Part shown: positions 8,662-29,596 of the stretch, one piece after another | Position numbering within the stretch: position 1 is the first letter of the stretch | Layout of the letters: every line of letters begins with the position of its first letter | NCBI RefSeq assembly: GCF_900079115.1 | Contig: NZ_LT549890.1 | Location: forward strand, 2,430,001 to 2,462,000 | Direction: 5' to 3' | Length of the DNA: 32,000 bases | DNA from: Saccharolobus solfataricus | Lineage (GTDB): Archaea > Thermoproteota > Thermoprotei_A > Sulfolobales > Sulfolobaceae | Translations under genes and position numbers: made by a program | Notes under the pieces: generated by a model | Databases searched by the model: none | What the model was told of the DNA's origin: nothing | Seen by the model: only the letters and a program-made list of their open reading frames with translations

Positions 8662-11577
8662 TTAAAACTTTGGTCTGGACCTTCTTATCGTTAAGAACAA
8701 TATTGCTATGATTATAATTGCTATTAGTATTATGACACTCCCTACAAAACTCCCATTTATGTTCTTTACGAAAGTTTCAGTTATTGGTTGATTTACGGTT
8801 ATTGCTACACCATTACTAACGTTATAGGAGCCCTCCCACTTGCCTTGTTCATATATGGGCACGGATTGGGTTAACGTTATTACGCTTCCTCTTGGTAACC
8901 ATTCTGAATTTCCATCTATTGTTACTAAATATTCTATTATTGGTTTAACATTAATACTAGTTGGTTGGGTTATATTTATTAAATACGAAGAAGTATTATA
9001 GAATATTCTTTCATTATTGCTTATATTTACGTATTTAGGTATTAATAAAGTTTGCCCAGCTGGTACCCAAATTTCACTAGTATTTAGGGTCCTATTTGCT
9101 ATTGTAATCAGTATTGGCTCATTCACAGTAACCAGATACTCCTTTAACGTCGTTACTTTCACAGTTAAGCTTCTATTTACTGTAAAGTTAAATGGTAATA
9201 TGGATAATATTATATATCTTGTATTGTTGGAGATATAATACGTCATGTTTATGAACGAAATAGGAGTTACCGCATTATACCATCCTGGACTAAAAGTAAC
9301 TAAGGTTGAATTGATTAAGGCTTTTATTGGTATGTTGGAAATTAAGTTTATATAGTATTGTAGGACATAGTGCAGTTTTAACGAGACTGGCCCATTAACT
9401 ATTATAACATTATTGGAAGTTGGCTTTCCATTTAGACTGATATTGACTAAGTTTTGTCTTTCAGTTTGATTAATATACCAAATTGTATATAATTCAATTT
9501 CAGTATCATTATTATACCATCCGTTACTTAAGGTGGTGTTTTTACCGTTGAAGAGTACATAGACTGGGTAGTTACTACTAACGTTTAAGAAATATTGAGG
9601 TAGTGTAATTATAGTTATATTAATTGGTTGGAGTAATGTAAAGTTTGAATATGGTAAAACTTTTTCCATGAGAAATCTTGCAGTACTATTTATATAGTAT
9701 GTGATGTTCTCTATCTGTATTCTACTTCCAGCGTTGAACCAAGAGTATTTTTGTAACGTCTCGTTAGTACCATTGACTAGTGCGTAAACTGGTATCTTGG
9801 AATAGACAATCAGAGGGTATTGCTTTACCGTTATGATTGATATTGTGATTGGATTTTCAACCGTAATGTTTCTGGAAGGTAAAATATTAGATATTACATA
9901 CCTATATTCGTTATTTTGTCCATAATATGTTATGTTTTCTATATTAATATTCGTACCTATATTATACCAATTACTGGTTAATGTACTATTAGTTCCATTA
10001 ATAAGTGCATAAATGGGTATCTGTGATTTTACAATAATATAATATTGTATTAACTCATTTGCAGTTATTGTATAAGACATATTTACGAGGATTTTATTTG
10101 CGGGTAAGATCTTAGTAATTACCGCTCTAGTTTCATTGCTTTGATAAAACGTTATATTATAAATTTGTATAACCGTGTTCTTATTGTACCACCCAGAGGA
10201 AATTGATGCGTTTGTCCCATTTATTGATCCGAAAAGTGGAATTAATGAGTTAACGTGCACGTAGTATTGTAAAATATAAGTTATTGTGAGGTTAGTGGGG
10301 GTAATTAATGTAAATTCATTAGTTGGGTATGAAAATACCATTATTCTTGAATCATTGGGATAATATGTAAACGGGCTAATTACCACTTTTATAGAGGCGT
10401 TATACCATCCACTACTCAGAGTTGTATAAATTCCATTGATACTTGCGTTTACTGGAATGTTTATATTAATGAAATACTGAAGTTGATAATATACTGTTAT
10501 GTTTCCACTCCTGTTTGCTAAAATTGGAGTAGAATTTAAGCTAACAATCCTGCTTAACCCGTTTAAGACAATAGATGGTAAACTTATATTAGAATTAGCA
10601 TTCACGAAAATCAAGGAAGGCAATCTTGCGATCTCTTTAAGACCGTCGGAAAAATATGAAACGTTTATAGGTATATTAAAGCTTCCTCCAATTACCTTAT
10701 AATTTAAGAATATTGGATATAAATTACCAGTTATAAAGTAATATCCATTTGAGGCTGTAAATGCTCCTATATAGGACAAATTATAGAAGGTGTAGTTATT
10801 TGAAACCGAATATGCAATCTCGTCAGTCGCTATACCTTGTGGAGGGGAGGTTAAATATATTTCATTAATACCTAAAGTGAAGCTAGTTGTTAAATATTGT
10901 AATCTATATATAACTCCCAGTTCTCCTCCAAAATATGCCTTAAGATGATACCATTCTGTCATTAATCCAGTTATGAAACCATGTAAAAAGTTAAGATCCG
11001 TAACGATACTGGATGCACCGTTAGCGTTAACAATTGCAATTGCTTTGGCACCAGTGCTATTATCATAAGCGGAAAGTATTATATTGCCATTTGATATTTC
11101 GATTTCTAGCATCATCTCATCCCCGCTATTCACAATTCCATTGAAGTTTAGCAGAACTGGTCCTATTACCGGATCCCCGCTACTATTCCAGACCATGTAG
11201 ATCATATGAAATCCTGGGTCAAATGAACCATTTGTATAAGGCCAATTATAGGCTACACCAACTTGATACCACCAGTCATTATTGGTTATTGCATTTAACA
11301 AATACGCTGGACCGTAACCAGAATCACTAGTTTGTGCAATTACTTTTACATAAATTACTAAATTTGTACTAACTGGATATGCATTTAACGCCATGAATAG
11401 CTGCTCGTCGTAGAAAGTTATCCCTGGGTCATTAGAATTTAACGTGGATAATGGTAGTGGTTTAGTATTACTATGAGATACTGGGGTTAATGGAATAAGA
11501 GATATAATTAAAAGGATTGTTATAATAATTACTTTCCACTCCATATTTTTTGTCTTTATACAAAACCTTTTAAGCAT
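8662..11577 (-). CDS. large secreted, heavily N-glycosylated, C-terminally membrane-anchored protein: thermopsin-like N-terminal region plus eight tandem beta-repeats
   Basis: The maximal ORF is 990 aa (to 11634). Likely starts are the ATG at 11577 (MLKRFCIKTKNMEWKVIIITILLIISLIPL, signal-peptide-like) or at 11544. There are about 44 N-x-S/T sequons by hand count. The C-terminus is VGSVIILIAIIIIAILFLTI followed by RRSRPKF. TSPPQGIATDEIAY and WWYQVGVAY...IYMVWN resemble thermopsin (peptidase A5) segments from memory. Confidence 0.85.
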   Translation of the reverse strand: MLKRFCIKTKNMEWKVIIITILLIISLIPLTPVSHSNTKPLPLSTLNSNDPGITFYDEQLFMALNAYPVSTNLVIYVKVIAQTSDSGYGPAYLLNAITNNDWWYQVGVAYNWPYTNGSFDPGFHMIYMVWNSSGDPVIGPVLLNFNGIVNSGDEMMLEIEISNGNIILSAYDNSTGAKAIAIVNANGASSIVTDLNFLHGFITGLMTEWYHLKAYFGGELGVIYRLQYLTTSFTLGINEIYLTSPPQGIATDEIAYSVSNNYTFYNLSYIGAFTASNGYYFITGNLYPIFLNYKVIGGSFNIPINVSYFSDGLKEIARLPSLIFVNANSNISLPSIVLNGLSRIVSLNSTPILANRSGNITVYYQLQYFININIPVNASINGIYTTLSSGWYNASIKVVISPFTYYPNDSRIMVFSYPTNEFTLITPTNLTITYILQYYVHVNSLIPLFGSINGTNASISSGWYNKNTVIQIYNITFYQSNETRAVITKILPANKILVNMSYTITANELIQYYIIVKSQIPIYALINGTNSTLTSNWYNIGTNINIENITYYGQNNEYRYVISNILPSRNITVENPITISIITVKQYPLIVYSKIPVYALVNGTNETLQKYSWFNAGSRIQIENITYYINSTARFLMEKVLPYSNFTLLQPINITIITLPQYFLNVSSNYPVYVLFNGKNTTLSNGWYNNDTEIELYTIWYINQTERQNLVNISLNGKPTSNNVIIVNGPVSLKLHYVLQYYINLISNIPIKALINSTLVTFSPGWYNAVTPISFINMTYYISNNTRYIILSILPFNFTVNRSLTVKVTTLKEYLVTVNEPILITIANRTLNTSEIWVPAGQTLLIPKYVNISNNERIFYNTSSYLINITQPTSINVKPIIEYLVTIDGNSEWLPRGSVITLTQSVPIYEQGKWEGSYNVSNGVAITVNQPITETFVKNINGSFVGSVIILIAIIIIAILFLTIRRSRPKF
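8761..10485 (-). repeat. eight tandem in-frame repeats of 69-79 aa within the glycoprotein gene
   Basis: Repeat units start at aa 386, 456, 530, 605, 680, 759, 832 and 901. The shared pattern is QYY(I/L)xVxSxIP(I/V)YALINGTNxTLxSGWYNxGTxIxIxNITYYxxNxxRYVIxxILPxxNxTVxxPIxIxxxxxK. Confidence 0.8.
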
Positions 11578-11693
11578 TTTTCCAACTGAACTTTCTTCAG
11601 TAGTACTATATATTAAAATCATAATATTAGTCAATCATTTCCATTATCATAAGATATATATATTCCGCTTGAGAATAAAGAATGTGGTGTTGA

Positions 11694-12212: not shown

Positions 12213-12587
12213 ATGATGAATGTGATAATGAGAGAAATAGGTAAAAAATTAGATGAACTGTCTAGAGAATTTTATGAATCAGTTATTCCGCCCATAGATA
12301 TGTATGAAGAAGGGGGAGAGTTAGTAGTGGTAGCAGATCTAGCGGGTTTTAATAAAGATAAGATAAGTGTAAGGTTATCTGCACAGAACGAACTGATAAT
12401 TAACGCTGAAAGGGAAATACAGTATATTGGTACTAAATACGCTACTCAGAGACCTCTTAAGATACATAAGGTAATTCGTTTACCGGTAAAGGTTAAGAGG
12501 GATTCTCAAGTTACAGCGAAATATGAAAATGGTGTATTGACTATAAGGATACCAGTGGAGGGTTCAGTCTCAATCAGAATAGAATAA
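12213..12587 (+). CDS. hsp20: small heat shock protein, alpha-crystallin/Hsp20 family
   Basis: 124 aa. DMYEEGGELVVVADLAGFNKDKISV ... KYENGVLTIRIP is nearly co-linear with the Sulfolobus Hsp14-type sHSP I remember. GGTGA lies 6 nt upstream of the ATG. An alternative ATG is at 12228. Confidence 0.92.
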   Translation: MMNVIMREIGKKLDELSREFYESVIPPIDMYEEGGELVVVADLAGFNKDKISVRLSAQNELIINAEREIQYIGTKYATQRPLKIHKVIRLPVKVKRDSQVTAKYENGVLTIRIPVEGSVSIRIE

Positions 12588-14089: not shown

Positions 14090-14308
14090 AACTATAATAT
14101 AGTAAAAAGGAAGTATTTGTACCTATTCTAAGTTGTTAGAGTGCAGTAATAAAGTTCTAAATAAATTTTTCTTAATAGTATTAAAGATTAGTTAGCTGTA
14201 AATAATGTAAGAATGTTGAACTTAGAGGGGCAGATAAAATCTTATTATCGTTCATTTTTACCGTCTATTTTAGGAAGAATTTAATAGTTTTGTTAGTTAT
14301 AGATATAC

Positions 14309-15574
14309 ATGAAAATACTAATAATTGCCCCCTTAACTGAGGTATCGGAAGAAGAAAATGAGATCAGACCGATAGAAGTTACAAATTGGTCAAATTCACC
14401 AGTAGGAATTAGCTCCAAGTATTCTTTTTTAGCCGAAAAGAAGTTCCTTGAAGAAGAAAGGCATGAGGTTAAAATTTTAACTCTAGTCCCGACCGAAATA
14501 AGAAAGAATCTTAACGTTAAATTCAGTAACTATAATGAGCTAGTCAGTAATATTTTGGAGGCTCTAAAGTTCGGTAATGATAATATCGCAGTTGAGGTGA
14601 TACCCTTTGAGGATTCAGTAAGTTTGGGTACTTCCCTATTCTTCTCTTATTTGAAAATTTATTATGCTATAAAGACTTTCTTACCTAGTTTAATAATTTT
14701 AGATGTATCACACTCTAGTTCTTCCTTTTCCACATTAGTTTTAACAGCGTTAGATATAGCGATAACTGATTCACTTCTCACCCAACAAGTTGAAAATTAT
14801 ATTTACGCAAAAGTAAGTAAAAGGAACGATTCTATACAATTAATTAGTCATATGTTTAAGAATATGTATAGTATTAAATTATCTGAATATTTCTTAAGGG
14901 AGATGAAGATAATGAAATCGGAAAACCAGGCTAATTTACCTCAGTTTGTAGGAAGGGCTGAATTTAGAAGGCTTGGTTTTTGTATAGAAAATTGTTACCC
15001 TCTAGTTGTTCTTCATGTTCTGGATGGAATGGACTTAGAGAAACTGGTTAGTGAGGAAAAGATTATGGAGATAGTTGTTAACAATTTAGAGATCAAGGAT
15101 GGTAAATTAATACAGAATGTCGAGTTATTAGAGGGCGCGACGTATTATGTCCTTGCTACACACTTGGTAAAGAGGTATAAGGTTAAAAAACCATTTAGTG
15201 TTGATAATGTGAGGAATATTCTAAATTTAACTTCCCCAACTTGCAGGCGAATTTCCAATCAGATCATAGACGAAATGATGATAGAGTTGAACTACCTCCT
15301 AAGACATTTAGGATTGAGAGAAGGTGAGTATAGCTTAGAGCAAATATCTAATTTATTAAAACAACCTTTAACTGAGATTATACGAAAAGAAGAGAGCATT
15401 GGTGATATATTAAGTAGATATAAGCGTGAATGTGGAAGTATTAATTTAAGCGGAATTGGTTTAGACCCTGGTGCGACTATTATAAAGATAGATAGTGACA
15501 AGATTTACGTATATTACGCTGATGAATGTGAAGATAGTGTGTTAAGTAAAGTCAAAGATCAGATGGGCGATTAG
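14309..15574 (+). CDS. hypothetical protein; possible degenerate Csx1/CARF (DxTHG-family)-like protein
   Basis: A 421-aa ORF with a TATA-like aatttaatag about 26 nt upstream. Three features are co-linear with CRISPR-associated Csx1/DxTHG proteins from memory. The N-terminus is MKILIIAPL (Rossmann beta1-like). LDVSHSS at aa 131-137 sits where DxTHG is found. The C-terminal SGIGLD...IYVYY sits where RNxxAHxGLE...IxLxY is found. Both the catalytic R and H are absent. That it is a CDS is likely; the family call is weak. Confidence 0.5.
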   Translation: MKILIIAPLTEVSEEENEIRPIEVTNWSNSPVGISSKYSFLAEKKFLEEERHEVKILTLVPTEIRKNLNVKFSNYNELVSNILEALKFGNDNIAVEVIPFEDSVSLGTSLFFSYLKIYYAIKTFLPSLIILDVSHSSSSFSTLVLTALDIAITDSLLTQQVENYIYAKVSKRNDSIQLISHMFKNMYSIKLSEYFLREMKIMKSENQANLPQFVGRAEFRRLGFCIENCYPLVVLHVLDGMDLEKLVSEEKIMEIVVNNLEIKDGKLIQNVELLEGATYYVLATHLVKRYKVKKPFSVDNVRNILNLTSPTCRRISNQIIDEMMIELNYLLRHLGLREGEYSLEQISNLLKQPLTEIIRKEESIGDILSRYKRECGSINLSGIGLDPGATIIKIDSDKIYVYYADECEDSVLSKVKDQMGD

Positions 15575-16152
15575 CAGAAGTCCAATTTTACGCAAATTCT
15601 ATCATTATCGCAACTTTCATCTAATTCGATTATTTGAAAGTTTTCCTTAAGAGTTTCCGTTATTATGCGAAGGAATTTAATTATATTTGGGTTAGTTGAG
15701 ACATTGATCATCTCAAATTTTGTTTTTCCGTCTGCAACTAGTTTTATGTTATCCCCTAGAATATACGCTAGTCCTCTAAGGACATTCTCTAAAATTGATC
15801 TCTCTTTACAATTGCTTTCAAAACTCTCTAAAAGTAGTAAGCCTGTATCTTGCGCCTCATTAGTTATTATTGATAGCAACGAATTAGCTATTTCCTTGTA
15901 AATTTTTTCATCGTGGATACTTGAGATAAGATTATAGAATAGATTAGATGCTATAAGGTATTTAATTCCAAGTACTGCATTTCTCGTACTAGGATTAGTT
16001 ATATCAATATCTTCCATTATGAGTTCAGATGCGCTCTGTATTATTTTGTCTGTGCAATTGTATGATTTCTTATTGTCTAGCTTTATACAAATCTCATCCA
16101 ATTTCTCCCAAATATCACTTCTAATTCTCCAAGGTCGAGATTGTAAAGTCAT
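15571..16152 (-). CDS. hypothetical protein with a possible N-terminal ribbon-helix-helix-like segment
   Basis: 193 aa with a TATA-like tctatatat about 24 nt upstream of the ATG. The N-terminal RPWRIRSDIWEKLDEICIKLDNKKSYNCTDKIIQSASELI fits a strand-helix-turn-helix-like pattern. No family was recognised. Confidence 0.6.
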   Translation of the reverse strand: MTLQSRPWRIRSDIWEKLDEICIKLDNKKSYNCTDKIIQSASELIMEDIDITNPSTRNAVLGIKYLIASNLFYNLISSIHDEKIYKEIANSLLSIITNEAQDTGLLLLESFESNCKERSILENVLRGLAYILGDNIKLVADGKTKFEMINVSTNPNIIKFLRIITETLKENFQIIELDESCDNDRICVKLDFC

Positions 16153-16198: not shown

Positions 16199-17272
16199 TT
16201 ATGAGAATATTCTCTTAGTCATTCTTATTTTAAAGTAAAAACGATTATTTTTTTCTATTTCTGGTTCATCTAAAACATGTCTTATAAAACTAGAGAGGTT
16301 TTCATCGAAATCAGTTAAACCAGAAATAATAAATTCTTGATTATTTATCTTTATCAGCTTAATTCTAGGATCAATAAGAAGGGTAAAGATGTCAAGGTTC
16401 TTATTAATTATTTCCTTATCTATCAGTCTATAATTAATGTATTCAATTCCTCTTATATAAGGGTATAAAATATGGCCTGTTTTTCTAAGTTCCAGGAATA
16501 AGGTGTAGATATCATTTAATCTATCTAAAATATTATATAGGGGTAAATTATTTTTGAATAGAGTATCATATATTGTAAGCAGTTGATACATAGACCAATC
16601 GTTTATGAGTTTATCATATTTATCATTATTTTTGAGATTGTTATGAGTGAACTTGGTTATTATTTGGTTTCTCTTACTAATTACGCTACTTTCAACTCTT
16701 ACTAAATGATGGTTTCGGTTTCCAAAATCTATAAGAGATTGATATGGTGCGATTATCTCTATATTATCTTTAGAACTATTTATCTTTCCTATGCCTAATA
16801 CCGTAACAATATTTTCCAAAAAATTCTGGACATAATCTCTTAATTTTTTATTTATATTATTTAAACTGATTTTATAAATTAAAGTATTTCTATTCGTAAC
16901 TACCAAGGGGGTATATGGAGATGGAATTAAATACTCCAGAAGATGTTTTAGATGTATTGGATTCATGAAGTTGAAGTACTTCTTAAATAGATATCCTATA
17001 ATTTCATCACCAGAATACACATCAACTTTATCCTCTATATATGAAGAATGTATAAACGAGAAATTCTCATGAATTAGAATATAGGGTATAAGAAAGCAGA
17101 GATCGATTCCCAATAAGGAGTCATCCTTTTCCATCATGTTCATCATAGTCATGAGAGCATTGGTGTAGAAGTCTTTCTCATCCTCTATTCCATACATCCT
17201 CATAATGACCTCTGCTCTTTCTCTGAGACTTTCACTAATTGGCGTTAGTCTAATGTCGGCAGATCTTGGCAC
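16199..17272 (-). CDS. hypothetical protein with a possible N-terminal ribbon-helix-helix-like segment
   Basis: 357 aa with a GTG start. ADIRLTPISESLRERAEVIMRMYGIEDEKDFYTNALMTMM fits an RHH-like pattern. The protein is very Asn/Lys/Ile/Tyr-rich. No family was recognised. Confidence 0.65.
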   Translation of the reverse strand: MPRSADIRLTPISESLRERAEVIMRMYGIEDEKDFYTNALMTMMNMMEKDDSLLGIDLCFLIPYILIHENFSFIHSSYIEDKVDVYSGDEIIGYLFKKYFNFMNPIHLKHLLEYLIPSPYTPLVVTNRNTLIYKISLNNINKKLRDYVQNFLENIVTVLGIGKINSSKDNIEIIAPYQSLIDFGNRNHHLVRVESSVISKRNQIITKFTHNNLKNNDKYDKLINDWSMYQLLTIYDTLFKNNLPLYNILDRLNDIYTLFLELRKTGHILYPYIRGIEYINYRLIDKEIINKNLDIFTLLIDPRIKLIKINNQEFIISGLTDFDENLSSFIRHVLDEPEIEKNNRFYFKIRMTKRIFS

Positions 17273-17346: not shown

Positions 17347-17700
17347 GTTTAATCATTAGAGTAAAATAAGGCGTTCTGAATTATGCAGTTGTCAGCTGTC
17401 TTCGATGAACTACCCCACCCTCATGACGGGGCATCCTCACCTCATGATTCTCCGCTTCTTAGAACAATCTCGATCCCCATAGCGGAGGTTCCATCAAACC
17501 ATTCTGCAATGCCCCGTATGGAAGAGGGGTTATGGAGGGTTTGCTCTACATAGGCATTAAGGGGAGTCCCACGAACCCAGCACTTCCAGCCAAGGTCGGA
17601 TTCATTTTATCACCTTTTTGATAATAAACTTTTCCGGGGTTATCCATCTCCTATCTGACGGAAGGAGGACTTTCGCTCCCTCAACCACGATAAGTTAAAC
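17347..17700 (-). ncRNA. rnpB: probable RNase P RNA
   Basis: The minus strand carries three conserved motifs in the expected order. GAAAGUCC (CR-I-like) is at 17667-17674. AGAGCAAACC, identical to the J11/12 CR-II stretch of bacterial M1 RNA as I remember it, is at 17538-17547. CAGAACGCCUUAU (CR-V-like) is at 17366-17378. A terminal helix pairs 17690-17700 with 17347-17356. A 9-bp helix ACGGGGCAU/AUGCCCCGU (17509-17517 with 17426-17434) encloses a CUCCGCU/AGCGGAG hairpin. G+C is clearly above the surrounding DNA, and there is no ORF. Confidence 0.6.
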
Positions 17701-17919
17701 TGTGAAATTTGTAAACCTAATAATACGTGGATTGTATAGTATATGCATCGAATGCGGACACTTACCCATAAATAAAGTGGTACTAAAAATAAGTAGGTGA
17801 TTTTTCAGCACCAACGAGTAAGTGTTAATTGGTTTTTATTCATAGACGAAGAATGAACGGGTGTTCAGTAATAAATCTTATTATATAGGGTTGCCCGTAA
17901 AATCGATGAAACTTAAGTG

Positions 17920-22025: not shown

Positions 22026-22433
22026 TTAAGGGCGGGAACTCTGAATTTTTTCAAGAAATGTTTCTGGGTTTTTTATATCGTATAAGACTGTAATTTTACC
22101 GTTTTTTAAAATAATGTAAATTGAGCCACACTTTAATTTTTTTGCTATAGGCCCTTGTGAGATAAAAGTATCCTTAAAATTTTCCGCTTTAACTACTTTT
22201 TTACCTAATAATGATTTTATTATTATCCCACTCTCAGAGATGCAGTAAGTATAACTCTTGAACCACGCAATTATAAAAAGTAATATAGCATACCATATGC
22301 CAACGAAAATAAGATAATTAATTACGCTAGTTATCTCCAAGAATAAGGAAAAAATGGTAAGTATAATAGTCCCTTCAACGAGAAGCCTTCTTCCAGTTGG
22401 TTTCGTACAACCAACAAGCGACTTTTCTCCCAT
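22026..22433 (-). CDS. membrane protein with bacterial PH-like (DUF304/bPH_2) domain
   Basis: 135 aa with two TM helices followed by ISESGIIIKSLLGKKVVKAENFKD...GSIYIILKNGKITVLYDIKNPE. It overlaps the dppF 3' end by 59 nt. No alternative start lies downstream of the overlap. Confidence 0.6.
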   Translation of the reverse strand: MGEKSLVGCTKPTGRRLLVEGTIILTIFSLFLEITSVINYLIFVGIWYAILLFIIAWFKSYTYCISESGIIIKSLLGKKVVKAENFKDTFISQGPIAKKLKCGSIYIILKNGKITVLYDIKNPETFLEKIQSSRP

Positions 22434-23346
22434 TTATTTCCACCAATGGTGGTTCCTTTTCCTTACATACTGACATAGCAAAAGGACATCTGGGATTGAA
22501 TCTGCATCCGCTAGGCGGATTTATTAAGCTGGGCACTTCCCCGCTTGGTGGCTTAAGCTCCTTCTTTCCCAATTCTGGTACTGAGCTAAGCAGTGATTGA
22601 GTATATGGATGCATTGGTTCCGAAATAACTTCTTTTGTATTTCCTTCTTCAACAATTTTTCCCGCATACATAATTATGACTCTATCAGATATGTATCTAG
22701 CTACCGCGATGTTGTGGGTAATGAAGAGGTATGTAAGTTTTCTTTCCTTTTGTAGGTCTACAAGTAGATTAAGAATTTGTGCTTGTACTGATGCATCTAA
22801 AGCTGAAGTCGGTTCATCTAAAATTAAAAAATCCGGCTCTTTTGCAAGCGCTCTTGCTATTGCAACTCTCTGCGTTTGCCCTCCAGACAATTCTCTAGGA
22901 TACTTATCTTTTACGTAATTATAATCAAGACCAACTTCCTCTAATAACTTCTTGACTCTTTCTTCCCTTTTCTCCTTCATGGCTTCTCTAACAATATCCT
23001 TGACTTTCATTCTTGGATTTATGGATGTCATAGGATTTTGGAAAACCATATGTATATGTTTTCTAACATGATTTATATTGCGATCATTTACCTCCATTCC
23101 CATAAAGATTAAATTTCCACCAGTAGGCTTTTCCAATGTAGCTAGTACCTTGCCTAATGTGGTTTTACCAGAACCACTTTCACCCACAACACCTAAAACT
23201 TCGCCTTTCCTTATCTCCACGGATACGTTATCTAATGCTCTAACATAAATTGGGGGCTCTCTCGCTAATGATTCCAGTATTCCCCTCTTCTTTGCAAGGT
23301 AGTATTTATTTATATTAATTGCCTTGTAAAGTATACTATCACTCAT
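22375..23346 (-). CDS. dppF: Dpp/Opp-type ABC transporter ATP-binding protein (OppF-like)
   Basis: Walker A GESGSGKTT, signature LSGGQTQR, Walker B LILDEPTSALD, a C-terminal oligopeptide-type extension containing HPYT, and a Cys cluster. Confidence 0.9.
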   Translation of the reverse strand: MSDSILYKAININKYYLAKKRGILESLAREPPIYVRALDNVSVEIRKGEVLGVVGESGSGKTTLGKVLATLEKPTGGNLIFMGMEVNDRNINHVRKHIHMVFQNPMTSINPRMKVKDIVREAMKEKREERVKKLLEEVGLDYNYVKDKYPRELSGGQTQRVAIARALAKEPDFLILDEPTSALDASVQAQILNLLVDLQKERKLTYLFITHNIAVARYISDRVIIMYAGKIVEEGNTKEVISEPMHPYTQSLLSSVPELGKKELKPPSGEVPSLINPPSGCRFNPRCPFAMSVCKEKEPPLVEINGRKVACWLYETNWKKASR

Positions 23347-24313
23347 ATAACCAACACCTTATTTTTCTTCCATTTTTCTCAATAATGCTTGGCTCTTTCT
23401 TTCTACAAATATCGAAAACTTTACTACATCTATTACTAAACTTACATCCAGTAGGTAATGCAAAAAACGATGGTGGATTACCTGGAATAGCAGTTAACTT
23501 TTGATTTTTATCCCCAGATGGTATACTCGCTACTAACCCTTGGGTGTATGGATGCATTGGTGATTTTAAAACTTCTTCAACTTTTCCGTCCTCCATAATT
23601 CTTCCTGCGTACATTACTACTATTCTATCTGATACTACGTAAGCTAAGGAAATATCATGGGTTATAAAAAGAATGCTTGTATTTATTTCCTTATTTAATT
23701 GTTTAAACAGATTAACCACTTGCGCTTGTATTGTAACGTCCAATGCAGATGTTGGTTCATCCGCTATGAGCAATTTGGGCTTTAATAATAAAGCCATAGA
23801 AATAACTATTCTTTGAACTTGTCCACCTGAAAGTTGGTGAGGGTAACGATCAATAATGGAATAAGGATCTGGAAGTCTTAAATCTTTTAGAACTTCAATA
23901 ACATCTCTCATTAAACTTTCTTCTTCAGCCTTCTTTCCTTCTCTTTGATATCTTATTTTAACAGCTTCTAAGAGCTGAGAGCCTACCTTCTTTACTGGAT
24001 TTAAGCTATTTAATGGATTTTGAAATATCATGAAAACCCATGTTCCTCTATATTTCTGCAGTTCGCTATCTTTTAACTTAGCTAAATTAACTCCATCTAC
24101 TATGATATCGCCTTGAATTCTCGCATTCGGAGGTAAAATTCTGGATATTGCGTGGCCTAATGTAGATTTTCCAGAACCGCTTTCTCCAACAACTCCTACT
24201 ATTTCCCCTTTTTCTACATCTAGGTTTACATCACTTAATACTTTAACCCAGCTAATTAGTGTATTATAGTAAACGTTCAAATTTCTAATCTGAAGCACTA
24301 CCATATTATTCAC
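23339..24313 (-). CDS. dppD: Dpp/Opp-type ABC transporter ATP-binding protein (OppD-like)
   Basis: GESGSGKST, LSGGQVQR, LIADEPTSALD, HPYT and a C-terminal Cys cluster. It overlaps dppF by 8 nt. Confidence 0.9.
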   Translation of the reverse strand: MNNMVVLQIRNLNVYYNTLISWVKVLSDVNLDVEKGEIVGVVGESGSGKSTLGHAISRILPPNARIQGDIIVDGVNLAKLKDSELQKYRGTWVFMIFQNPLNSLNPVKKVGSQLLEAVKIRYQREGKKAEEESLMRDVIEVLKDLRLPDPYSIIDRYPHQLSGGQVQRIVISMALLLKPKLLIADEPTSALDVTIQAQVVNLFKQLNKEINTSILFITHDISLAYVVSDRIVVMYAGRIMEDGKVEEVLKSPMHPYTQGLVASIPSGDKNQKLTAIPGNPPSFFALPTGCKFSNRCSKVFDICRKKEPSIIEKNGRKIRCWLYE

Positions 24314-25210
24314 CTAATAGACTATTCTTCCAGCTACTACATCTTGTAATCTGTCACCTAATAGTACAAAACCTACGACAATAATTAGAATAGTCAACCC
24401 TGGAAATAAGGCCCACCACCAGTATTGCGGTAAACCAGTAACACCATTTGCTGCCATTTCTCCTAATTCTGGGATTGGAGGCGTTATTCCTATTCCTAGA
24501 AACGCTAAGGTCGAATAAGTTAGTATTACGTTACCAAAATCCAATGCTGCATAGGCTAATACAGGGTCTATGGCGTTTAGAAAAATATATCTGTAGAACA
24601 GTGATATTCTAGATACGTTACTTAATTTTGCGGCAGAGATGTAGTCCATGTTCTTTATCCTTAACGTTTGTGCCCTATAGAATCTAGCATAGGTTGGCCA
24701 CCACACTACCGCTAAGCCTAGTATAGTGGCGAAGAAGGTAGCCTTTAATGGTACAGTTATTGCGATAACTAATATTAATGCGGGCAAGGATAGAAAGGCG
24801 TCAGTAACTCTCATTAGGATTTCATCTACAATACCGCCTAGATAACCCGCAAGTATTCCTAATATTCCTCCTATGATTATAGCTGAAAACACTACCACTA
24901 TTGCTACGAATGCATCTCTAGGTAATGCGTATAAAATTCTTGAAAGAATATCTTCCCCTTCTGCATTAGTACCTAAAAGGAAAGTAGATGAAGGAGGATG
25001 AAAAGCCAACTGTAAATTATATTGGAAGGGATTATGTGGAAGGAGTATATAACCTAAATATTGTTTTCTAAGATAACTTGACAATATCTCTAATATTCCT
25101 TGTATGAGAGACCATATTAGGAAAAGGCTTACTATAATTAATCCCAATAATCCAGCCTTATCTCTAATTAGCGCCTTTAACATAAATCTAATTCCGGAAC
25201 TTTCACTCAA
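24314..25210 (-). CDS. dppC: Dpp/Opp-type ABC transporter permease (DppC-like)
   Basis: 298 aa with 6 TM helices and a BPD_transp_1-like EAA region (YISAAKLSNVSRISLFYRYIFLNA). It abuts dppD with no gap. Confidence 0.9.
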   Translation of the reverse strand: MSESSGIRFMLKALIRDKAGLLGLIIVSLFLIWSLIQGILEILSSYLRKQYLGYILLPHNPFQYNLQLAFHPPSSTFLLGTNAEGEDILSRILYALPRDAFVAIVVVFSAIIIGGILGILAGYLGGIVDEILMRVTDAFLSLPALILVIAITVPLKATFFATILGLAVVWWPTYARFYRAQTLRIKNMDYISAAKLSNVSRISLFYRYIFLNAIDPVLAYAALDFGNVILTYSTLAFLGIGITPPIPELGEMAANGVTGLPQYWWWALFPGLTILIIVVGFVLLGDRLQDVVAGRIVY

Positions 25211-26234
25211 CTATCCTCACCCTTGGATCTAGAACCCCGTAAAGTATATCTGCTATAAGATTCGCTATTATTATTGCAATTCCAACAATTATTGTTGTCC
25301 CCAAAATTGATGTGTAATCTAGACTTTCTATTGCTTGAGTAATGAAATACCCCATTCCATGATATTGGAATATATCCTCAATCACGACTGCCCCAGCTAC
25401 TGAGTATCCGAAAAGCAAAGCAATCAATGTTACTAATGGTATCGATGCATTTCTTAAAACCACACCATATACAACTCTTCTTCTACTAAGCCCCTTCATG
25501 AGACTAAGTTTAGCGAAGTCAGATTCCATATAATCCAGCATTGAAGCTCTGGCTATTCTAGTCACTATTCCAAAACTGACCAACGCAATCGCTATAACAG
25601 GCAAGACCATATGGTGGACTAAACTAGAAAAATAAGGCCAATCCCCTGCTAACATCGCGTTAAGCAAAGGAAAAGGTGTTATAGACTTTGGCGGAGTAAG
25701 AACTGGGTTGACAGTACCGGTAGGGGGTAATAATCTGAGATAGTATGCTATAACTAGCTGTAATATAACAGCAATTAAAAATGGCGGAGATGCCCAAGTA
25801 ACTAAGTAAACGCCACGGACCAGATAATCCAGCGGTTTATTTCTGTTTGATGCAGCTATGGCGCCAGTAAACAAACCAATAACTACGGAAAGTATTGTTG
25901 CTGGTATTACCAACTCTAGGGTTCTTGGTAAATATTTTCCAATCAGCGTAATCACCGGTACCTTATATGTTGGATCTATACCGAAATTTCCATGTAGTAC
26001 ATTAATTATGTAGTTAATTATTTGGATGTAAAGGGGTTGGTCAAGTCCATATTGTTTGGCTACCTGTTCTAACTCTGTGTAGGTCGCATGTGGCCCAGTG
26101 TATAGCCTTGCTAAGGCTAAGGGATTTGGTGCTATTATATGTATCATAATAAAAACCAATATAATTAGTAATATTAGGGTAATGAAAGCATTAATGATTC
26201 TTCTTATGATAAAGAAAACTATATTTATGGACAT
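25203..26234 (-). CDS. dppB: Dpp/Opp-type ABC transporter permease (DppB-like)
   Basis: 343 aa with an N-terminal IIRRIINAFITLILLIILVF and an EAA-like DFAKLSLMKGLSRRRVVYGVVLRNA. It overlaps dppC by 8 nt. Confidence 0.9.
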   Translation of the reverse strand: MSINIVFFIIRRIINAFITLILLIILVFIMIHIIAPNPLALARLYTGPHATYTELEQVAKQYGLDQPLYIQIINYIINVLHGNFGIDPTYKVPVITLIGKYLPRTLELVIPATILSVVIGLFTGAIAASNRNKPLDYLVRGVYLVTWASPPFLIAVILQLVIAYYLRLLPPTGTVNPVLTPPKSITPFPLLNAMLAGDWPYFSSLVHHMVLPVIAIALVSFGIVTRIARASMLDYMESDFAKLSLMKGLSRRRVVYGVVLRNASIPLVTLIALLFGYSVAGAVVIEDIFQYHGMGYFITQAIESLDYTSILGTTIIVGIAIIIANLIADILYGVLDPRVRIVE

Positions 26235-26323
26235 ACCATGTCCATTTAAATAAAGTTTGAGGGTACTAATATATTTATTCTCACAAAGTAAACGAGGAAA
26301 GAAAAAGAAAAATAAAGATGACT

Positions 26324-28504
26324 TTAGAACCCTGGACCTCCTCTACCTCTTCCTCTTAAGAGGACTACTGCTACTACTATTATAATTATCACGATGACTA
26401 TTCCTATTACTGCATAAATTAGTGTAGATGAGGAAGATGAAGTAGTTGTCGTCATACTGGTTACTGACGTAGTAATATTCGTAGCACCACCAAATACAAT
26501 ACTTGTTGTCGTAGTTTGAAGCGTAGTAGTTGTTGTAGAGGAGGTCGTGCTGGTTGAAGTTGATATAGTTATAGTGTATGGTTGATAATACATTAGGTTA
26601 TAGTAATAGCCTATGAATGGGTTATATACAAATCCTTTCACATAGGGCTGGACAAAGTAATATACTACAGGGTTTGGTAACCAAGCGTATGGTGCTTGTT
26701 GATACAATATCTGATATACTTTAGCCACCTCTAAAGTTTGTTGTGTTTGATTTGTTAAGAAGGGTAAATTCTCGTATATTTGCTGTAATGTTGAAATATT
26801 AACCCACGCTAAATCTCCAGATATTCCACCGTATAATACATCAGTTTGTGCCATTAATTCTTGGAAAATCGGATCTGGCCAATCAGGGAACCAGCCTAAA
26901 TCTATCAGAGCAGGTGTGCCACTTGGTGTTATCCAGTTGTCGGTTACGGAAGGTAGGACATACTGTATTGATGTTGAAATCCCTATCTTTTGTAAGCTTT
27001 CTTGAATTATTGTTAGTTGTTCTTGCTCTAACTCATTCACAGGTGCTAAAGCGTATATAGTTAATGTGCCTAATTGCTTACCATTAGTATCACCTATCGT
27101 AGTTCCGTTAGGCAATACAACATAGAAGTGCCCTTCATATCCAGCTTCATTCAAGTAGTGTAAGGCTAAGGATAGGTTGTAGGTGTAGGGGTGTAACTTA
27201 TCTAATTGCATAACTTCGTTATAGAGTGGGAATACCGGAGATATTGGACCTAAATACTCTATTGCTAGCGTTTGATTTTGGAATTTGAATATATCTAATT
27301 CTGCGGTATAGTTTATAGCGTGAACTATTGCTTGCCTAAATGCAGTAATGTTAGTAGGGAAGATTTGCGTATTCATTGCAATGTAGAATACTGCTGCCTC
27401 ATAACCTAAATTTGCAAATATTTGGTTAAAACTTACATATTTATTATACTGATATGCAGAGTACATTTGCTGTAAGAATGGTAAGCTAACGTATGAAATT
27501 TGTGCTTGATTCGTAGCAAAATCCTCAACTCTATTATTGTGGCTTAATCCGTATTTTATGTCAATAACTGGTATATGTCCCGGTTGAGCTACAAGTGGTA
27601 TGTTAGATAAATTGGCAGCCCAATAATGTGGATTCTTCACTAATACGATCTCAGATAAACTAGGTCCCACACTCTTAATCACATAAGGACCAGTTCCTTC
27701 CATACCATTGTCATTAATATATGAGTTAGGAGTATTTGGCTGAACTCCACCATGTTCATCAATAAAGACTGGATTAACTATTGCTCCCCACCAGCTAGCT
27801 ATATCTAATAGGAAGTACCTATAGGGTTCAAGTGTATTTATCTCGACCTCATAAGGACCCTTAACTACTACCGCTTGGTATGGGTATTCCATGATTTTCT
27901 GTATTGTAGTATTCGCAGCGTTGAAATGAGATAGTATTGATGCAAGTACATTCGCAGCTAGTGTTGCGTTCTTAGTAGTCGGTAATCCAGTAACGTTTTG
28001 TATTGCTGCTGCTACACCCCACGGTAAGGCATATCCAGTCTGTCCATATTGAGTTGAATTGAATAGTAGTTCAATATAGTTAGCTACACCAGGGCCTTGT
28101 CCCATTAGTATGGTCCTATAGAACGAGAACCAAACAGTACTAGCGTTTACTTGTACTCCATCTGGGAAGTATACTCCATGTCTTATGAAGAATGTCCAGT
28201 TCTCATAGTTTGTGGTTGACCAGTTCTGGGCTATAACTGGAACAACTTGTAAATAATTCGAACCGTTAAATTCCACTAGTTCTTGAAATATTGCTTGATA
28301 TAACGGTCCATCTTGAACGTAAAATCCAGTAGCTGGGTCAAGTGCATCAGGAGGTGCTGTTTGGGAAACGTCAATAAGTATAGATGAGTTTGGCGGAGAT
28401 ATTGTTAGTGATGTTTGTGCTGAAGTTTGCAATAAAAATAGTGATGGTAGAATTATGCCTATTAACATTATTGATAAAAGCGCTAAACCCTTGAGGCTAG
28501 ACAT
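26324..28504 (-). CDS. dppA: family 5 (Dpp/Opp-type) substrate-binding protein with Ser/Thr-rich stalk and C-terminal TM anchor
   Basis: 726 aa with an N-terminal signal sequence and an SBP_bac_5-like body (GTGPYVIKS, NPHYW). The tail is TISTSTSTTSSTTTTTLQTTTTS...TTTTSSSSST, then the hydrophobic LIYAVIGIVIVIIIIVVAVVLL, then RGRGRGG. This is the Sulfolobus-style anchored binding-protein architecture. Confidence 0.88.
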   Translation of the reverse strand: MSSLKGLALLSIMLIGIILPSLFLLQTSAQTSLTISPPNSSILIDVSQTAPPDALDPATGFYVQDGPLYQAIFQELVEFNGSNYLQVVPVIAQNWSTTNYENWTFFIRHGVYFPDGVQVNASTVWFSFYRTILMGQGPGVANYIELLFNSTQYGQTGYALPWGVAAAIQNVTGLPTTKNATLAANVLASILSHFNAANTTIQKIMEYPYQAVVVKGPYEVEINTLEPYRYFLLDIASWWGAIVNPVFIDEHGGVQPNTPNSYINDNGMEGTGPYVIKSVGPSLSEIVLVKNPHYWAANLSNIPLVAQPGHIPVIDIKYGLSHNNRVEDFATNQAQISYVSLPFLQQMYSAYQYNKYVSFNQIFANLGYEAAVFYIAMNTQIFPTNITAFRQAIVHAINYTAELDIFKFQNQTLAIEYLGPISPVFPLYNEVMQLDKLHPYTYNLSLALHYLNEAGYEGHFYVVLPNGTTIGDTNGKQLGTLTIYALAPVNELEQEQLTIIQESLQKIGISTSIQYVLPSVTDNWITPSGTPALIDLGWFPDWPDPIFQELMAQTDVLYGGISGDLAWVNISTLQQIYENLPFLTNQTQQTLEVAKVYQILYQQAPYAWLPNPVVYYFVQPYVKGFVYNPFIGYYYNLMYYQPYTITISTSTSTTSSTTTTTLQTTTTSIVFGGATNITTSVTSMTTTTSSSSSTLIYAVIGIVIVIIIIVVAVVLLRGRGRGGPGF

Positions 28505-28648: not shown

Positions 28649-29596
28649 CTATATCTTAACACTTTTATGTACTCCATCATCCATTAAGGCTACACAGTAA
28701 CTTGCTATTCTAGCCAATTCCCTTGCCAGTTCTCTGCATTCTATCTTGCTTCCATACACTATCTTGTTTATTTCTTTCATACTTTCCCTTATACTCCTTA
28801 CGTGATCTATATTTTCGTCGAAAAATACTTCTCGAGATTTCTCAAACATATTTACAATGATTTTAATTATGGAATTCAGTTCTTTATCGTTGGATGTGTT
28901 TCCACATTCTGTTATGGCTAGGGATGCGGTTTTTATATGAGATAGCATTCTTCCCATGTCACGCATTGCTATTGCATAGAGTATTAGATCTCTAGTTGGC
29001 AAGCCTTTTACTACAAATTCCTCCTCTTTCTGTGAGACTAGTGCTATTTCCCTTATTACTGAATTGTATAATTTGTTTAACTCTTCAGCACGGTTTTTCA
29101 AATCTATAGCCATCTCCTTACTAGGATTTTCAATTATCTTTTCCAGATCCTTTAGTAGTACTAGTAATTTACTAGAGAAAGTTTTCATTCTTTCGACCAC
29201 GTTAGTATTAACATCATCTTGAACTTTGAACGTAATATAGTTAAAGCTTTCACTCTCAATTGTTAAACCTGGTAAATATAATTGCAAATTTTTTAGCTCA
29301 TCCTTTATAGGTGCTGATATTACGGACTTCGATTTTATCTCTATTTCTGAAATCCCTTGCATATAGTATACCGTTATCAAGTATTTGGTAGTTTCTAGAT
29401 CAATAAGATCAAGGTCAATTATCTTTCTAGTAATATAATCCCTTATAGGTTTTATTAATAGCTCTCCATTCTTTTCTATAACAAAAACCTCACTTTTAGC
29501 ATCTAAGTTATTTCTCCTAACCCATTCTGGAGGTAATGTTATTATGTAACTGCCACCTTTAATTTTCTGAATTCTTCTCCTTAGATTCTTCTCCAT
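28649..29596 (-). CDS. AbrB/SpoVT-domain plus PhoU-like-repeat regulator
   Basis: 315 aa. The N-terminal IQKIKGGSYIITLPPEWVRRNNL is a swapped-hairpin AbrB motif. The rest is helical with two PhoU-like repeats (COG0704-like archaeal architecture). Confidence 0.7.
   Translation of the reverse strand: MEKNLRRRIQKIKGGSYIITLPPEWVRRNNLDAKSEVFVIEKNGELLIKPIRDYITRKIIDLDLIDLETTKYLITVYYMQGISEIEIKSKSVISAPIKDELKNLQLYLPGLTIESESFNYITFKVQDDVNTNVVERMKTFSSKLLVLLKDLEKIIENPSKEMAIDLKNRAEELNKLYNSVIREIALVSQKEEEFVVKGLPTRDLILYAIAMRDMGRMLSHIKTASLAITECGNTSNDKELNSIIKIIVNMFEKSREVFFDENIDHVRSIRESMKEINKIVYGSKIECRELARELARIASYCVALMDDGVHKSVKI

Follow-up and report, generated by a model that had tools for sequence, protein, structure and literature searches.

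What can a Csx1-type protein still do when it is encoded away from any CRISPR locus and has lost its nuclease site? This question is raised by a gene of Saccharolobus solfataricus, which lies in a stretch of 32,000 nucleotides of contig NZ_LT549890.1 (positions 2,430,001 to 2,462,000; this whole stretch is called the window here, and coordinates refer to it). Type III signalling in the Sulfolobales is usually pictured with three players, the Cas10 cyclase, the Csx1 ribonuclease (RNase) that cyclic tetra-adenylate (cA4) switches on, and the ring nucleases. The product of the S. solfataricus gene is a stand-alone paralogue, specific to the Sulfolobaceae, of Csx1, the ancillary ribonuclease of type III systems (CARF9 group). 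Judged from sequence and predicted structure, the protein is quite possibly a non-catalytic CARF receptor, which would bind cA4 or a related adenylate and act by binding and not by catalysis. The open reading frame (ORF) of 421 amino acids (aa) that an initial annotation of this DNA had described as Csx1-like is indeed present in the window:

14309 to 15574, forward strand: complete ORF with ATG start, 421 aa plus stop, encoding a Csx1-like protein with CARF, helical middle and HEPN-like parts

The relationship to Csx1 is hidden from direct searches. Neither the window protein alone nor a profile of its five orthologues gave any match in Pfam, NCBIfam or PDB sequence searches, and a single orthologue matches PF22230 of Pfam at E 0.011. 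In a word-index search the orthologues form only five 90% clusters, and such searches with wider alignments added almost no homologues. An exhaustive profile search with the five orthologue clusters against 1.84 billion representatives revealed 13 proteins, among them seven additional full-length relatives with E-values of 1e-9 to 1e-41. Five proteins of this clade (P0009, P0010, P0012, P0013 and P0014) exceed the Pfam gathering thresholds for both Csx1_CARF (PF22230) and Csx1_HEPN (PF09455). When the five-orthologue profile was aligned by hhalign with a profile built from these Pfam-positive relatives only, the two matched at 99.95% (E 4e-38) over 407 of 420 columns.

The predicted fold leads to the same assignment. 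The AlphaFold2 (AF2) model used is based on the 13-sequence alignment and reaches a predicted local distance difference test score (pLDDT) of 90.1 and a predicted template modelling score (pTM) of 0.89; an earlier run on a shallow alignment of five sequences was discarded (pLDDT 47). The top match of the model in a Foldseek search of the PDB is S. solfataricus Csx1 (2I71, E 6e-18, TM 0.66/0.73), which the clade profile also matches at E 7.6e-10. Csm6 from T. onnurineus follows (6O6S, TM ~0.70), and then Csx1-Crn2, SisCsx1 and Csa3. The N-terminal Rossmann-like CARF domain is thus recognisable by the family profile, by hhalign, by the PADLOC CARF9 models (E 6e-251 and 2e-40) and by Foldseek, and the Csx1-type HEPN fold with its hairpin at the C-terminus is supported by an alignment that reaches the C-terminus of the Csx1_HEPN-positive relatives. 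The protein is therefore a genuine Csx1-type CARF-HEPN protein, as had been proposed. The outcome that was to refute the homology, no profile match together with a fold other than CARF, was looked for and does not hold, since a Csx1 profile match and a CARF-type fold were both found.

The motifs on which the proposal had been built are located as quoted, namely MKILIIAPL at aa 1-9, EVKILTLVPT at aa 53-62, RNILNL at aa 302-307 and the C-terminal string KRECGSINLSGIGLDPGATIIKIDSDKIYVYY at aa 372-403. The first two coincide with beta strands of the model (2-8 and 53-61), and the predicted C-terminal hairpin is formed by strands 390-395 and 398-403, which ends at Y403. For LDVSHSS the residue numbers 131-137 are right, but it is encoded by nt 14699-14719 of the forward strand; the range 14702-14716 given in the initial annotation covers DVSHS only.

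The loss of the nuclease site is best seen in the C-terminal part of the protein, which comprises the following features:

15209 to 15571, forward strand: HEPN-like domain without catalytic residues, about aa 301-421, delimited by alignment to the Csx1_HEPN-positive relatives
15356 to 15367, forward strand: L350-K-Q-P353 in place of G-N-x-R (clade alignment)
15434 to 15454, forward strand: former Rx4H catalytic loop, G376-S-I-N-L-S-G382 (clade alignment)
15476 to 15517, forward strand: Csx1-type beta-hairpin past the former active site, aa 390-403, ending at the clade-invariant Y403

The pattern R-x(4-6)-H does not occur anywhere in the window protein. As about 52% of shuffled versions of the protein contain it by chance, its bare absence is weak evidence, and it is the homologous columns which are informative. 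In the clade alignment S377 stands where the relatives have R, I378 where they have N and G382 where they have H, and the motif is gone at this site in all five orthologue clusters, which confirms the claimed loss. The second motif, G-N-x-R, occurs unchanged in every one of the five Pfam-positive relatives, and the lineages that have lost it are exactly those that lack both the Arg and the His. The clade is graded in this respect. The full E-R-N-F-x-A-H is found in P0012 and P0014, the Arg is gone but the His and GNxR are kept in an intermediate grade formed by P0009, P0010 and P0013, and the window family, its sister P0008, P0011 and P0016 have neither Arg nor His. In SisCsx1 the equivalent change H404A abolishes RNA cleavage (PMC6754442). 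Together with the lost R, N and H columns this makes it very unlikely that the window protein has RNase activity through the HEPN mechanism. The beta-hairpin, which is a hallmark of Csx1 (PMC3710099), is still there.

Two cysteines, C375 (nt 15431-15433, forward strand) and C407 (nt 15527-15529), flank the HEPN active-site loop and the beta-hairpin. They are invariant in 13 of 13 clade members, active and dead ones alike. A Zn ion was reported close to the site in P. furiosus Csx1 (PMC3710099), but to regard the pair as a disulfide or a metal site is speculation.

The sensor part looks different. As a measure of erosion we took the positions at which the five Pfam-positive relatives do not vary and counted how many of them the window family keeps. 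The HEPN-like domain keeps 5 of 16 such positions and 3 more conservatively, whereas the CARF domain keeps 10 of 14 identically and 1 more conservatively. The initial annotation had regarded the sensor residues as eroded as well; in view of these counts and of the retained D-x-S-H this does not hold as written. The CARF features are:

14309 to 14878, forward strand: CARF domain, about aa 1-190 (boundary approximate, from the secondary structure of the AF2 model)
forward strand, aa positions 2-8, 53-61, 93-98, 128-132 and 163-185: CARF strands b1, b2, b3, b4 and b5/b6 (AF2 model)
14702 to 14716, forward strand: remnant of CARF motif II, D132-V-S134-H135-S136, where Csx1 has D-x-T-H-G (alignment columns)

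In motif II the whole family shares D132 and S134, H135 is missing from one of the five orthologue clusters, and S or A takes the place of the G. T10, at the end of b1, does not vary either. T10 and D132-x-S134 correspond to what we take to be the signature of the CARF superfamily, S/T after b1 and [DN]-x-[ST] after b4. The loop between b3 and a3 is 13 residues shorter than in the other clade members. We considered this deletion as a sign of a destroyed pocket and rejected it, because in the same profile alignment the functional SSO1389 (2I71) also lacks 8 hairpin residues.

Between the two domains lie the following features:

14879 to 15208, forward strand: helical middle region, about aa 191-300 (boundary approximate, AF2 model)
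15119 to 15148, forward strand: near-invariant family-specific motif VELLEGATYY, aa 271-280 (alignment)

The middle region also contains a clade-invariant G215-R-[AS]-E. VELLEGATYY is partly shared with P0008, the other RNase-dead relative. Motifs that have become invariant within the family are VELLEGATYY, GRAEFRR and SFLAEK, and they point to neofunctionalisation and not to decay.

The pattern of substitutions is that of a gene under purifying selection. In comparison with the S. islandicus orthologue (80% identity) the ratio of nonsynonymous to synonymous substitution rates (dN/dS) is 0.135 overall, with 0.19 for the CARF part, 0.13 for the HEPN-like part and the lowest value, 0.07, for the middle region; with a metagenomic orthologue of 54% identity it is 0.14. 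Orthologues at 45-80% identity are full length and intact, without frameshifts. Upstream of the gene a putative promoter element was found:

14280 to 14286, forward strand: TATA-like element TTTAATA, preceded by a purine-rich GGAAGAA, its centre about 26 nt upstream of the ATG

This spacing is the geometry expected for leaderless transcripts of the Sulfolobales, and TTTAATA or TTTAAAA stands at equal distance in four of four orthologous loci. In one of them, which carries an S. islandicus-type orthologue (locus L013, 6001-6003), the start codon is GTG instead of the ATG of the window and the TATA element is kept.

Four other explanations were weighed against a receptor function. That the ORF is a decaying relic or a mis-called frame without function might be suggested by the lost catalytic residues and the lack of a direct Pfam or NCBIfam match. 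However, the intact orthologues, the dN/dS of 0.13-0.14, the conserved promoter element, the confident and well packed AF2 model and the detection of a probable orthologue as protein all contradict it, and the selection analysis effectively refutes this idea. It is also highly improbable, though somewhat less so, that the protein still cleaves RNA, with an active site of non-canonical type within its HEPN-like cleft. Some HEPN families do function with variant motifs (PMC3710099), and invariant polar residues are available in the C-terminal part (E340, K372, D409, H285 and R302), but in five of five orthologue clusters non-polar or small residues stand in place of GNxR and ERNxxxH, and HEPN domains without conserved polar residues are regarded as inactive nucleic-acid binders (PMC3710099). 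Some more weight, although it is still an unlikely explanation, has a ring nuclease, i.e. a CARF domain which degrades cA4 and so serves as off-switch for type III signalling. The CARF domains of some full-length Csm6 and Csx1 proteins cleave cA4 (PMC10897365, PMC7694759), and D-x-S-H is similar to the D-S-T-H found in ToCsm6, an enzyme that limits itself and is among the best structural matches. The basic residue of motif II is essential in enzymes of the Crn1 type (TtCsm6 K137, Sso1393 K168, Sso2081 R105/K106; PMC10897365, 10.1101/380436). At this position, six residues downstream, the window protein has no K or R but an invariant Ser, S138, and a Crn1-type ring nuclease is disfavoured because this catalytic Lys/Arg is absent. 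Moreover, S. solfataricus Csx1 carries DTTHG yet has no ring nuclease activity, and the cA4-degrading activity fractionated from S. solfataricus lysate followed a single band, Sso2081 (10.1101/380436).

The main rival is an exapted housekeeping protein with a role unrelated to cyclic oligoadenylate (cOA) signalling, for example in the binding of other nucleotides or RNA or in stress, in which conservation of the CARF domain would merely reflect constraints of fold or dimer. We consider this less probable than a receptor and clearly more probable than a ring nuclease. It is favoured by the fixed position of the gene in the core genome, among Hsp20, ABC1 kinase and TreT in every orthologous locus, by the absence of cas genes within 14-17 kb and by the new family-specific motifs. 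The invariant ligand-site positions of the superfamily (S/T after b1 and D-x-S/T after b4) speak against it, as does the fact that the motif-intact relatives of the clade are orphan genes, too. As these relatives are orphans and cOA acts in trans, the distance from cas genes is no argument against a function in cOA signalling. Several observations nevertheless count against a cA4 receptor. The housekeeping location in the core genome fits a cOA-unrelated, exapted role equally well. Two CARF features, the HG of DxTHG and the G-x-F in the loop from b3 to a3, have changed, which also belongs to the case for exaptation. Csx1 holds cA4 mostly through main-chain atoms of its loops (PMC6754442), so that sequence cannot establish binding. 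The S. islandicus strains Y.G.57.14, M.14.25 and M.16.27 were scored as lacking csx1 in a review (PMC7694759), and despite this score orthologues are present in all three, as the exaptation argument would have it. Finally, the orthologue in S. islandicus REY15A is probably SiRe_2599, an assignment based on gene order only (Hsp20 being SiRe_2601 and the ABC1 kinase SiRe_2600 / Sso2605). SiRe_2599 is a 'conserved hypothetical protein' which was detected in the S. islandicus proteome, and its protein level goes up in acid stress, a further point in favour of a housekeeping role.

For a cA4 receptor, a mechanism can be outlined as follows. The complete CARF, helical and HEPN scaffold is kept, the catalytic residues of HEPN are lost and the CARF core is largely intact. 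A homodimer of the Csx1 type would most likely still be formed, and cyclic tetra-adenylate or a related adenylate would most likely be held in the CARF pocket. One option is buffering, in which the protein would act as a sponge for cA4 or set the threshold of the signal. Alternatively, a conformational change induced by the ligand could be relayed to an RNA or protein partner via the conserved surfaces of the middle region and the HEPN-like domain.

If this is true, a Csx1 paralogue which keeps the sensor and lacks the nuclease would join cyclase, effector RNase and ring nucleases as a player of a fourth kind, in the role of regulator, buffer or non-catalytic receptor, and cOA signalling would have a non-catalytic receptor layer beside effectors and ring nucleases. 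The clade would then document how an active orphan Csx1 turned, step by step and via an R-less form, into a fully inactivated receptor. In the other case the family would show cleanly how a defence protein can be exapted to a housekeeping role. A more specific proposal, which we rate as rather unlikely, is that this RNase-dead Csx1 of the core genome is the host's buffer or threshold setter for cA4, or that it couples type III cOA signalling to a stress response of Saccharolobus. The hosts are genetically tractable model organisms, which makes the question directly testable.

Taxonomic distribution was derived from the source names of the matching sequences, and all named sources of the family are Sulfolobaceae or Sulfolobales, an order in which type III systems are present in nearly all members. 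An origin as viral or plasmid decoy was rejected, as no homologues were found in BFVD, IMG/VR, INPHARED and PLSDB. The family is already present in catalogues. The PADLOC-DB model PDLC01954, 'CARF9--CARF_HEPN', matches the window protein end to end (E 6.2e-251, 831 bits), and its name suggests that it originates from a CARF census. Some orthologues are labelled as MJ1666 or TM1812 family CRISPR-associated proteins in UniProt and NCBI. Because of that match and these labels the classification into the Csx1 group is not new. What may be novel is the recognition of the family as an inactivated, conserved derivative in the core genome, and the graded loss of the HEPN site within the clade. The window gene is missing from the published CARF inventories of S. 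solfataricus, in which sso1389, 1393, 1397, 1444, 1445 and 2081 are given (PMC8699464). Since the family occurs in S. islandicus strains that were scored csx1-negative, census-type analyses may misread it.

The location outside of CRISPR-cas, which the initial annotation had also claimed, is confirmed. No cas genes, CRISPR arrays, tandem repeats, CRISPR-like direct repeats or Rfam matches were found in the 32-kb window, and the orthologous loci contain no cas genes or arrays within +/-6-10 kb. The order Hsp20, ABC1 kinase, Csx1-like gene, 193-aa gene, 357-aa gene, TreT and DUF5752 recurs in loci of the S. islandicus type, of Sulfolobus sp. A20 and of the S. caldissimus type. Distant members of the clade, including the motif-intact P0012 and P0014, are also found among housekeeping genes, and the clade apparently departed from the cas loci before the nuclease was lost. 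Within 10 kb of these orphans with intact or half-intact HEPN site (L008/L009 for P0014, L010 for P0012 and L011 for P0009) cas genes are absent. Directly downstream of P0009 in L011 follows a nucleotidyltransferase/HepT-like toxin-antitoxin pair, and the genes within 10 kb of P0012 in L010 include an IS605 OrfB as well as an NTP_transf_2/HEPN pair.

Two convergent genes for conserved hypothetical proteins follow the Csx1-like gene, one of 193 aa (15571-16152, reverse strand) and one of 357 aa (16199-17272, reverse strand). The stop of the 193-aa gene overlaps that of the Csx1-like gene by 4 nt. Neither protein has a match in Pfam, NCBIfam, PADLOC or PDB sequences. The 193-aa protein diverges faster, with 33-35% identity where the Csx1-like protein keeps 47-54%. 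A functional link to these two neighbours was considered and rejected; they are restricted to a narrow syntenic group and absent near distant clade members, and the evidence for a connection to the Csx1-like gene does not go beyond shared descent.

Upstream, the Hsp20 gene (12213-12587, forward strand) encodes a protein starting with MMNVIMREIG. It is not SSO2427, whose cloning primer encodes MPKREEKD, and it is probably a second small heat shock protein of S. solfataricus. Its S. islandicus counterpart SiRe_2601 is down-regulated under acid stress (PMC10465181).

The 357-aa gene and TreT are separated by a non-coding spacer of about 550 bp (17363-17919). Its core (17380-17700) has a G+C content of 48% in comparison to about 33% around it and has no counterpart in the orthologous loci of S. 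islandicus and of metagenomes, with which the first ~90 nt past the 357-aa gene are shared. The spacer has no Rfam match and no significant fold (z -0.17), and contains one weak inverted repeat of 24 nt; it is possibly the remnant of an insertion or an undescribed RNA. Farther away, an ORF of 990 aa (8662-11634, reverse strand) has no Pfam match but 57-85% identity in all orthologous loci. It contains internally repeated segments (tblastn); in locus L011 of Sulfurisphaera javensis the region around a thermopsin-family gene is matched by these segments, too. A 315-aa protein with AbrB/MazE-type and PhoU domains (28649-29596, reverse strand) adjoins an operon for an oligopeptide ABC transporter (22375-28504).

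In comparison to known systems, the window protein shares the three-part architecture and fold over the full length with S. solfataricus Csx1 (SSO1389, 2I71) and T. onnurineus Csm6 (6O6S), as well as the D-x-[ST]-H motif of the CARF domain and the hairpin ending in Tyr past the HEPN loop. Its identity to them is only 11-13%, however, it lacks the HEPN residues R, N and H and GNxR, and its gene is a single-copy core gene in fixed synteny, away from cas genes. It is a member of the PDLC01954 family, the label of which implies a CARF-HEPN effector, but the sequences have an inactivated HEPN site. With the Crn1 ring nucleases (Sso2081 and Sso1393, CARF7) it has in common a CARF domain without RNase output, and the gene for Sso2081 likewise lies apart from cas genes. 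Crn1 proteins are much shorter, consisting of CARF plus a winged helix-turn-helix (wHTH), whereas the window protein has the full Csx1 architecture of 421 aa, and Crn1 needs the Lys/Arg of motif II, where the window protein has T10 after b1 but S138 at the basic position. The motif-intact orphans of the Sulfolobaceae, P0012 (Sulfolobales archaeon HS-7) and P0014, belong to the same clade and match the profile over the full length at E 2e-21 and 2e-11, respectively. They differ in that they keep E-R-N-x-x-A-H and GNxR and pass Pfam Csx1_HEPN, P0014 having also DTTHG. They share with the window protein the invariant Cys pair, and both kinds of protein are encoded away from cas genes.

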